Shown: positions 38,953 through 39,099 of the stretch, in pieces
How positions within the stretch are numbered: the stretch's first letter is position 1
How the letters are laid out: each line of letters begins with the position of its first letter
Position numbers and translations under genes: made by a program
Notes under the pieces: generated by a model
Databases searched by the model: none
What the model saw: only the letters and a program-made list of their open reading frames with translations
Told to the model about the DNA's origin: nothing
Assembly: GCF_003334405.1 (NCBI RefSeq)
Contig: NZ_QOWM01000016.1
Origin: Escherichia coli
GTDB taxonomy: Bacteria; Pseudomonadota; Gammaproteobacteria; Enterobacterales; Enterobacteriaceae
Direction: 5' to 3' (one strand)
Length of the DNA: 64,000 nucleotides

Positions 38953-39099
38953 TTAAACAGAGCACAAAATGCTGCCTCGAAATGAGGGCGGGAAAATAAG
39001 GTTATCAGCCTTGTTTTCTCCCTCATTACTTGAAGGATATGAAGCTAAAACCCTTTTTTATAAAGCATTTGTCCGAATTCGGACATAATCAAAAAAGCT

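Follow-up and report, generated by a model that had tools for sequence, protein, structure and literature searches.

The window, a 64,000-nt stretch of an Escherichia coli contig (NZ_QOWM01000016.1), carries metF and katG in the same orientation (Table 1). The spacer between the two genes is 100% identical to that of K-12 strains (MC4100, XL1-Blue and MG1655 derivatives) and of many other isolates, and the coordinates of metF were taken from the RefSeq annotation of an identical locus. Window positions are converted to NC_000913.3 by adding 4,094,595, which places the inverted repeat studied here (38981-39027) at 4133576-4133622. The canonical terminator of katG served as a positive control for this offset: its stem ends at 41463, and the published transcript end, 4136061, falls at window position 41466. 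The hairpin formed by the repeat starts 66-70 nt past the metF stop codon and bears no RefSeq annotation in the E. coli loci examined. Downstream of it, the SMRT-Cappable-seq supplementary data give two transcription start sites for katG, and the RNase targetome gives a 5' end near the katG start (4133790). The katG starts are 165-190 nt away from the hairpin, which is hence outside the katG primary transcripts.

Table 1. Features of the metF-katG region, in window coordinates.
Feature	Position	Strand	Basis or remarks
metF CDS	38021-38911	+	RefSeq annotation, identical locus
Escherichia-specific segment, ~195 nt	38912 to ~39108	+	replaces the short terminator-bearing spacer of other Enterobacteriaceae
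Weak AU-rich hairpin	38923-38954	+	TTTGTGA...TCACAAA, then TTTT; dG about -9, z -1.2
Extended RNA hairpin	38977-39033	+	folding; dG -25.9 kcal/mol, z -4.8
Basal 4-bp extension	38977-38980 with 39030-39033	+	
Outer 8-bp stem	38981-38988 with 39020-39027	+	
2-nt bulge	38989-38990	+	CG
Inner 13-bp stem	38991-39003 with 39007-39019	+	3 G-U pairs included
3-nt loop	39004-39006	+	AUC
C-rich, G-poor stretch	39111-39200	+	C 21, G 8; 80-170 nt downstream of the hairpin
katG transcription start sites	39193 and 39215 (4133788, 4133810)	+	SMRT-Cappable-seq supplementary data
katG	ATG at 39240	+	
Canonical katG terminator	41429-41463	+	CGTTCAGCG...CGCTGAACG, then TTCTTTACC; transcript end 3 nt past the stem

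Structure and uniqueness of the hairpin

A sequence-only reading of this locus had described two arms, AATGAGGG (38981-38988) and CCCTCATT (39020-39027), and these are indeed perfectly complementary 8-mers, 31 nt apart. The AAAA (38993-38996) and TTTT (39014-39017) of its inner stem are also found where it had placed them. The 17-nt segment in between was correctly positioned, but it is not the plain loop it was taken for, since TAAGGTTATCAGCCTTG pairs with itself. The inverted repeat is larger than that description: in the metF-sense RNA, the helix reaches about 21 contiguous pairs, or 25 with the basal extension, with a 2-nt bulge and a 3-nt loop. Its distance to the katG ATG, estimated at about 210 bp, measures 213 nt.

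Folding of the two strands, which the same reading had proposed as a check, gave -25.9 kcal/mol (z -4.8) for the plus strand and -17.7 kcal/mol (z -3.1) for the minus strand, the latter being weaker because the G-U pairs of the plus strand turn into A-C mismatches there. The fold is well beyond chance: dinucleotide shuffles reach -12.2 +/- 2.9 kcal/mol, and none of the 200 matches the energy of the hairpin. By raw energy, the hairpin is in the top 0.8% of the 60-nt stretches taken from either strand of the whole window, even though it is embedded in AT-rich sequence. With DNA folding parameters, the single strands give -13.7 (plus) and -9.9 (minus).

Each of the 5426 complete E. coli genomes has the hairpin, and at a single place, whether searched with the 59-nt hairpin (E-value limit 10) or with a 199-nt segment (limit 0.01). 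This agrees with the earlier opinion that it is not REP-like, and a repeated or mobile element is ruled out. No second copy was found within the 64-kb window or in the metF loci of other genera. We also discarded a plasmid origin, as the matches labelled "plasmid" were mislabelled chromosomes, and a phage origin, as there was no match in phages. A small protein encoded at 38969-39088 (39 aa) was rejected as well: the frame is broken by a 1-nt insertion in strain SCPM-O-B-8794 and by an early stop in CRECJHTL34, and no Shine-Dalgarno sequence precedes its ATG. More generally, both ORFs that overlap the hairpin are disrupted by indels or stops in other strains, which leaves no candidate coding sequence. 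The scan of positions 38000-40000 against Rfam 15 in E-value mode gave chance-level matches only, among them one to mir-14 (21.6 bits, for a gathering score of 53), and a promoter scan of the region returned no promoter-like site.

The spacer across Enterobacteriaceae and within E. coli

For comparison, we took metF loci from 80 species of Enterobacteriaceae, with one locus each. In those where katG is the next gene, the two are separated by 144-208 nt in Salmonella, Citrobacter, Enterobacter, Leclercia, Lelliottia, Pseudocitrobacter, and Yokenella, and by 328-340 nt in E. coli and E. albertii. In most of the 78 loci from outside Escherichia, metF is followed within about 45 nt of its stop codon by a GC stem and a T-run, as in the canonical terminators GGCCCTCCCTGGAGGGCTTTTTT in Citrobacter and GCTCCCTGCCGGGAGCTTTATT in Salmonella. 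Such a canonical metF terminator is absent from E. coli and E. albertii according to a stem-plus-T-run scan. The segment of about 195 nt that stands in its place has no homologue among the 78 other metF loci, and homology to other genera restarts at GATCTACATCTC, in the katG OxyR/promoter region. The ancestral canonical terminator of metF was lost in Escherichia.

The terminators of the other enterics and the E. coli hairpin have in common the slot directly after metF, the sense strand, and a GAGGG/CCCTC core in the arms. The former are short GC stems of 6-13 bp, with the T-run following at once, and all this within about 45 nt of the stop codon, whereas the latter begins 66-70 nt from the stop, is long and AU-rich inside, has no T-run, and cannot be aligned with them. 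In Kluyvera, the same slot after metF is occupied by a REP-type sequence that is unrelated to the E. coli hairpin.

The region is largely unalignable in E. albertii, where a different strong hairpin, CCCGCTTTTCCTCCC ... GGGAGAATAAAGCGGG, is found about 25 nt further downstream. The inverted repeat (positions 2466-2520 of the E. albertii locus, L002) overlaps the homologue of the E. coli 3' arm and also lacks a U-tract. It folds at -25 kcal/mol on the plus strand and -31.5 on the minus strand. Its second arm resembles an opposite-strand copy, which suggests an origin by template switching. The sequence-only reading had named two evolutionary tests of the repeat, conservation in related species and compensatory changes in the arms. 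On the first, we found no conservation beyond Escherichia.

Within E. coli, the hairpin is in a hypervariable island (about 38985-39105) where deep haplotypes differ by 10-20%; hardly any variation is seen in the katG promoter/OxyR region (39108-39240) or in the roughly 65 nt that follow metF. With the 59-nt hairpin as a query, 529 genomes are at only 80-90% identity to K-12. We distinguished five deep haplotypes of the hairpin, represented by K-12, KSC207/CI5, NRG857C/AB24, SCPM-O-B-8794, and CRECJHTL34. All five fold at -19 to -29 kcal/mol, to be compared with about -12 for shuffled sequence, and in each of them the plus strand folds better than the minus strand. The structure thus persists in all E. 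coli examined. A metagenome scan for further Escherichia haplotypes returned only the known types of E. coli and E. albertii.

Part of the variation maintains or extends the pairing. The C-to-T changes of the 3' arm at 39010 and 39022 result in G-U pairs on the plus strand, T39019G allows CGCCCTC to pair with GAGGGCG, and a GGG-to-GAG change perfects the pairing of GAGAAAA with TTTTCTC. Other changes disrupt peripheral pairs. Covariation among the haplotypes, the second evolutionary test, is not significant: there is one double change, equalled in 151 of 500 shuffles, in an underpowered comparison where 95.6% of the alignment cells are paired. Simulations of mutation point away from chance in one direction only, and are at most suggestive. 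When the variants were mutated at random, only 0.5-1% of the trials produced a helix that equalled that of K-12; when K-12 was mutated, 16-29% of the trials equalled the real variants in folding (p 0.16-0.29).

These patterns leave a sizeable, if lesser, probability for a neutral origin, the main rival of the explanation preferred below, in which the hairpin would be a lineage-specific quasi-palindrome of a nearly neutral, AT-rich spacer, made and repeatedly "perfected" by template-switch (hairpin-templated) mutation and with too little time to decay. Its place in the most variable part of the spacer, between invariant flanks, fits such an origin, as do the lack of significant covariation and the outcome of the simulations started from K-12. 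Several of the changes make the arms exactly complementary, as template switching predicts, and the E. albertii repeat is a different one, with the look of an opposite-strand copy and a reversed strand bias. Finally, no transcript end is recorded at the hairpin in the datasets examined (see below). However, the five E. coli haplotypes and E. albertii all keep a structure of -19 kcal/mol or stronger in spite of a divergence of at least 12%, the plus strand is favoured in every E. coli haplotype, and hairpins of K-12 grade seldom arise in random mutants of the variant haplotypes. Besides, no other metF terminator in Escherichia is credible.

The same comparisons bear on a role at the level of DNA, either as the binding site of a dimeric protein or as a cruciform acting on the katG or metF promoters. 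We consider this highly improbable, even though the 8-bp arms are perfect and the fold of single-stranded DNA is significant too. Between the arms there are 31 bp that pair as well, as is typical of an RNA helix rather than of an operator. The repeat is at least 80 bp upstream of the conserved OxyR region and at least 165 nt upstream of the katG starts, and the strand asymmetry brought by G-U pairing is irrelevant in double-stranded DNA. The arms differ in sequence between E. coli strains and are lost in E. albertii; a sequence-specific protein site is disfavoured because the sequence evolves fast and the arms of E. albertii differ. Inspection by eye for the consensus sequences of CRP, MetJ, MetR, and IHF provided no convincing match.

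Neighbouring elements and transcript ends

Upstream of the hairpin, the structure that had been proposed as the probable metF terminator is present at 38923-38954, but it is much weaker than this name implies (Table 1). It is a leaky intrinsic terminator at best, and both terminator scans missed it. Its sequence is conserved in E. coli and its stem is mismatched in E. albertii. The larger hairpin is the sole strong structure between metF and the katG promoter. One may then wonder if it acts as a second terminator of a non-canonical, Rho-free kind, or as a strong pause hairpin, catching the polymerases that read through 38923-38954. A very stable sense-strand helix directly past a weak terminator would suit this role, as would its location at the position of the ancestral terminator and ahead of a co-directional gene that needs insulation. 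Yet, the stem is followed by ACUUGAAGGAUAUG, which is not U-rich, and there is no U-rich tract directly 3' of it (the tail being ACTTGAAGGATATG). The hairpin was flagged neither by the terminator scan nor by the separate stem-plus-T-run scan, and no 3' end is listed there. Hence, we regard this explanation as unlikely.

Several other elements of the spacer were recorded. The 65 nt that follow metF (block 38912-38975) are well conserved and contain several TGTGA/TCACA repeats. Downstream of the hairpin, the only terminator-like call of the scan is on the minus strand, at a perfect 16-bp palindrome (TGTCCGAATTCGGACA, 39070-39085). As other E. coli haplotypes have degraded versions of it (e.g., TCCTAAATCGGA and GCCGAAATCAGA), it is probably unconstrained. 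An IS1 insertion separates the hairpin from the katG promoter in strain ETEC4090 (equivalent to window position ~39098; ~2690-3600 of locus L152), and the hairpin is intact. The first 77 nt past the hairpin (39034-39110) have 12 C and 11 G, i.e., no excess of C over G. The C-rich stretch further downstream might serve for the loading of Rho, but it shares its positions with the katG promoter and the OxyR region.

Previous works have described a sigma-54 site within the 3' end of metF, on the plus strand at 38775-38791 (PMC4591121), and a peak of RpoN in the metF/katG spacer by genomic SELEX (PMC8743547). A transcript starting from this site would cross the metF 3' end and the hairpin. This leads to another conceivable reading, which we deem very unlikely: the 195-nt segment would function as a structured regulatory RNA, a module composed of the block 38912-38975, the hairpin, and a conserved block, AAAACCCTTTTTTATAAAGCATTTGTCCGAATTCGGACA, and would be released from the 3' region of metF. 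It might be transcribed from the sigma-54 site, with the hairpin as its stabilising or processing 3' structure. If this were true, katG, the neighbouring gene for oxidative stress, would be tied to methionine or nitrogen status.

We then searched published datasets for transcript ends, the remaining test named by the sequence-only reading, and found neither ends nor starts at the hairpin in the tables of Term-seq, SMRT-Cappable-seq, and the RNase targetome. The curated Term-seq of Adams et al. 2021 (LB and M63) has no 3' end in 4133500-4133899 on either strand, in thresholded lists where metF is without any assigned 3' end. The Rho table of the same study has no region in the metF-katG spacer, the nearest ones on the plus strand being at 4132762, inside metF, and at 4136801. 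The bicyclomycin-sensitive (Rho) regions reported inside metF are in sense at 4132762 (window ~38167) and in antisense at 4132920 (~38325). The antisense one implies that there is antisense transcription through metF. SMRT-Cappable-seq lists only the two katG transcripts here. A search of the literature for text on metF-katG, the metF terminator, or the metF 3'UTR returned nothing relevant.

The size of the helix raises the question of processing by RNase III, whose cleavage could start or modulate the decay of the metF mRNA, or split metF read-through RNA from katG. The 21 contiguous pairs make about two helical turns, with G-C pairs at the centre and the 2-nt bulge as the sole interruption. 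Intramolecular substrates of RNase III belong to the same size class of helices, about 21 bp (Altuvia et al. 2018, PMC6212723), and the predicted fold shares their near-continuous pairing. Against this, the main text of the same article does not mention metF, and the only site of the RNase targetome in this spacer is 4133790, near the katG start, with none within the hairpin. Processing by RNase III is thus quite unlikely in our view.

A candidate 3'-end element of metF

Since Escherichia has no canonical metF terminator, the transcript requires another structure at its 3' end. The loss of the terminator, the presence of one strong structure before the katG promoter, its bias towards the sense strand, and its persistence in E. 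coli and, as a different hairpin, in E. albertii lead us, together with an anatomy that fits the Dar & Sorek class described below, to read the hairpin as the probable 3'-end stem-loop of metF. Our best explanation, which we put forward tentatively, is that it is a 3'-UTR stem-loop devoid of U-tract that defines and protects the 3' end of the metF mRNA. The weak hairpin at 38923-38954 would be little or no obstacle to RNA polymerase leaving metF, which would go on to transcribe the one at 38977-39033. Termination would take place further downstream, probably through the action of Rho on the untranslated, A/U- and C-rich spacer. Exonucleases acting from 3' to 5' would then trim the RNA to the base of the helix of about 21 bp, which would become the steady-state 3' end of metF and protect the message. 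The hairpin may also slow or pause the polymerase, thereby insulating the OxyR-controlled promoter of katG from metF read-through.

The sequence-only reading had left three options for the repeat: a second terminator, an RNA processing or stability element, or a protein-binding site. The evidence favours the RNA element. A canonical second terminator is disfavoured because there is no U-tract, and the protein site for the reasons given above. An RNA-level element on the metF-sense strand is favoured by the G-U pairs, which make the plus strand 8 kcal/mol more stable in K-12, and by its occupation of the terminator slot of other enterics. Judged by conservation, compensatory changes, and transcript ends, the case for the repeat is only partly sustained. 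Several results count against a 3'-UTR stem-loop. The order of stability is reversed in E. albertii (-31.5 on the minus strand vs -25 on the plus strand). There is no mapped 3' end and no Rho-dependent region in the spacer in the tables of Adams et al. 2021, no significant covariation, and the element is absent outside Escherichia. Moreover, K-12 random mutants fold as well as the observed variants in 16-29% of cases, and the first 77 nt downstream have no C>G bias, with the C-rich stretch beyond them falling on the katG promoter. On balance, the most likely identity of the hairpin is that of a 3'-UTR stem-loop of an ordinary kind, unannotated and restricted to the genus.

If so, it would be a further case in which E. 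coli ends and stabilises a message in the absence of a canonical terminator. A textbook terminator would, moreover, have been swapped, within one genus, for a structurally different 3' element, ahead of the tightly regulated and co-directional katG. This would be of use for the annotation of the metF transcription unit and for the design of katG/metF reporter constructs, and it opens no new question.

Two types of known elements are instructive in this respect. REP/BIME-type repeats are, like the hairpin, imperfect intergenic palindromes downstream of a gene. The hairpin is unlike them in being single-copy in all 5426 genomes and in having no sequence relatives elsewhere. A closer parallel is the class described by Dar & Sorek 2018 (PMC6061677), in which Rho-dependent transcripts of E. 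coli end right after stable stem-loops lacking a U-rich tail, and these stem-loops shield the RNA from PNPase and RNase II. That class has a mild enrichment of C over G, which is found here only 80-170 nt away and not directly downstream, and the stem of about 21-25 bp is longer than the typical terminator-like stem. The resemblance, in sequence and predicted fold, consists of a stable stem-loop on the sense strand downstream of a gene, with neither a U-rich tail nor an upstream A-tract, at a gene, metF, that lacks a canonical intrinsic terminator.
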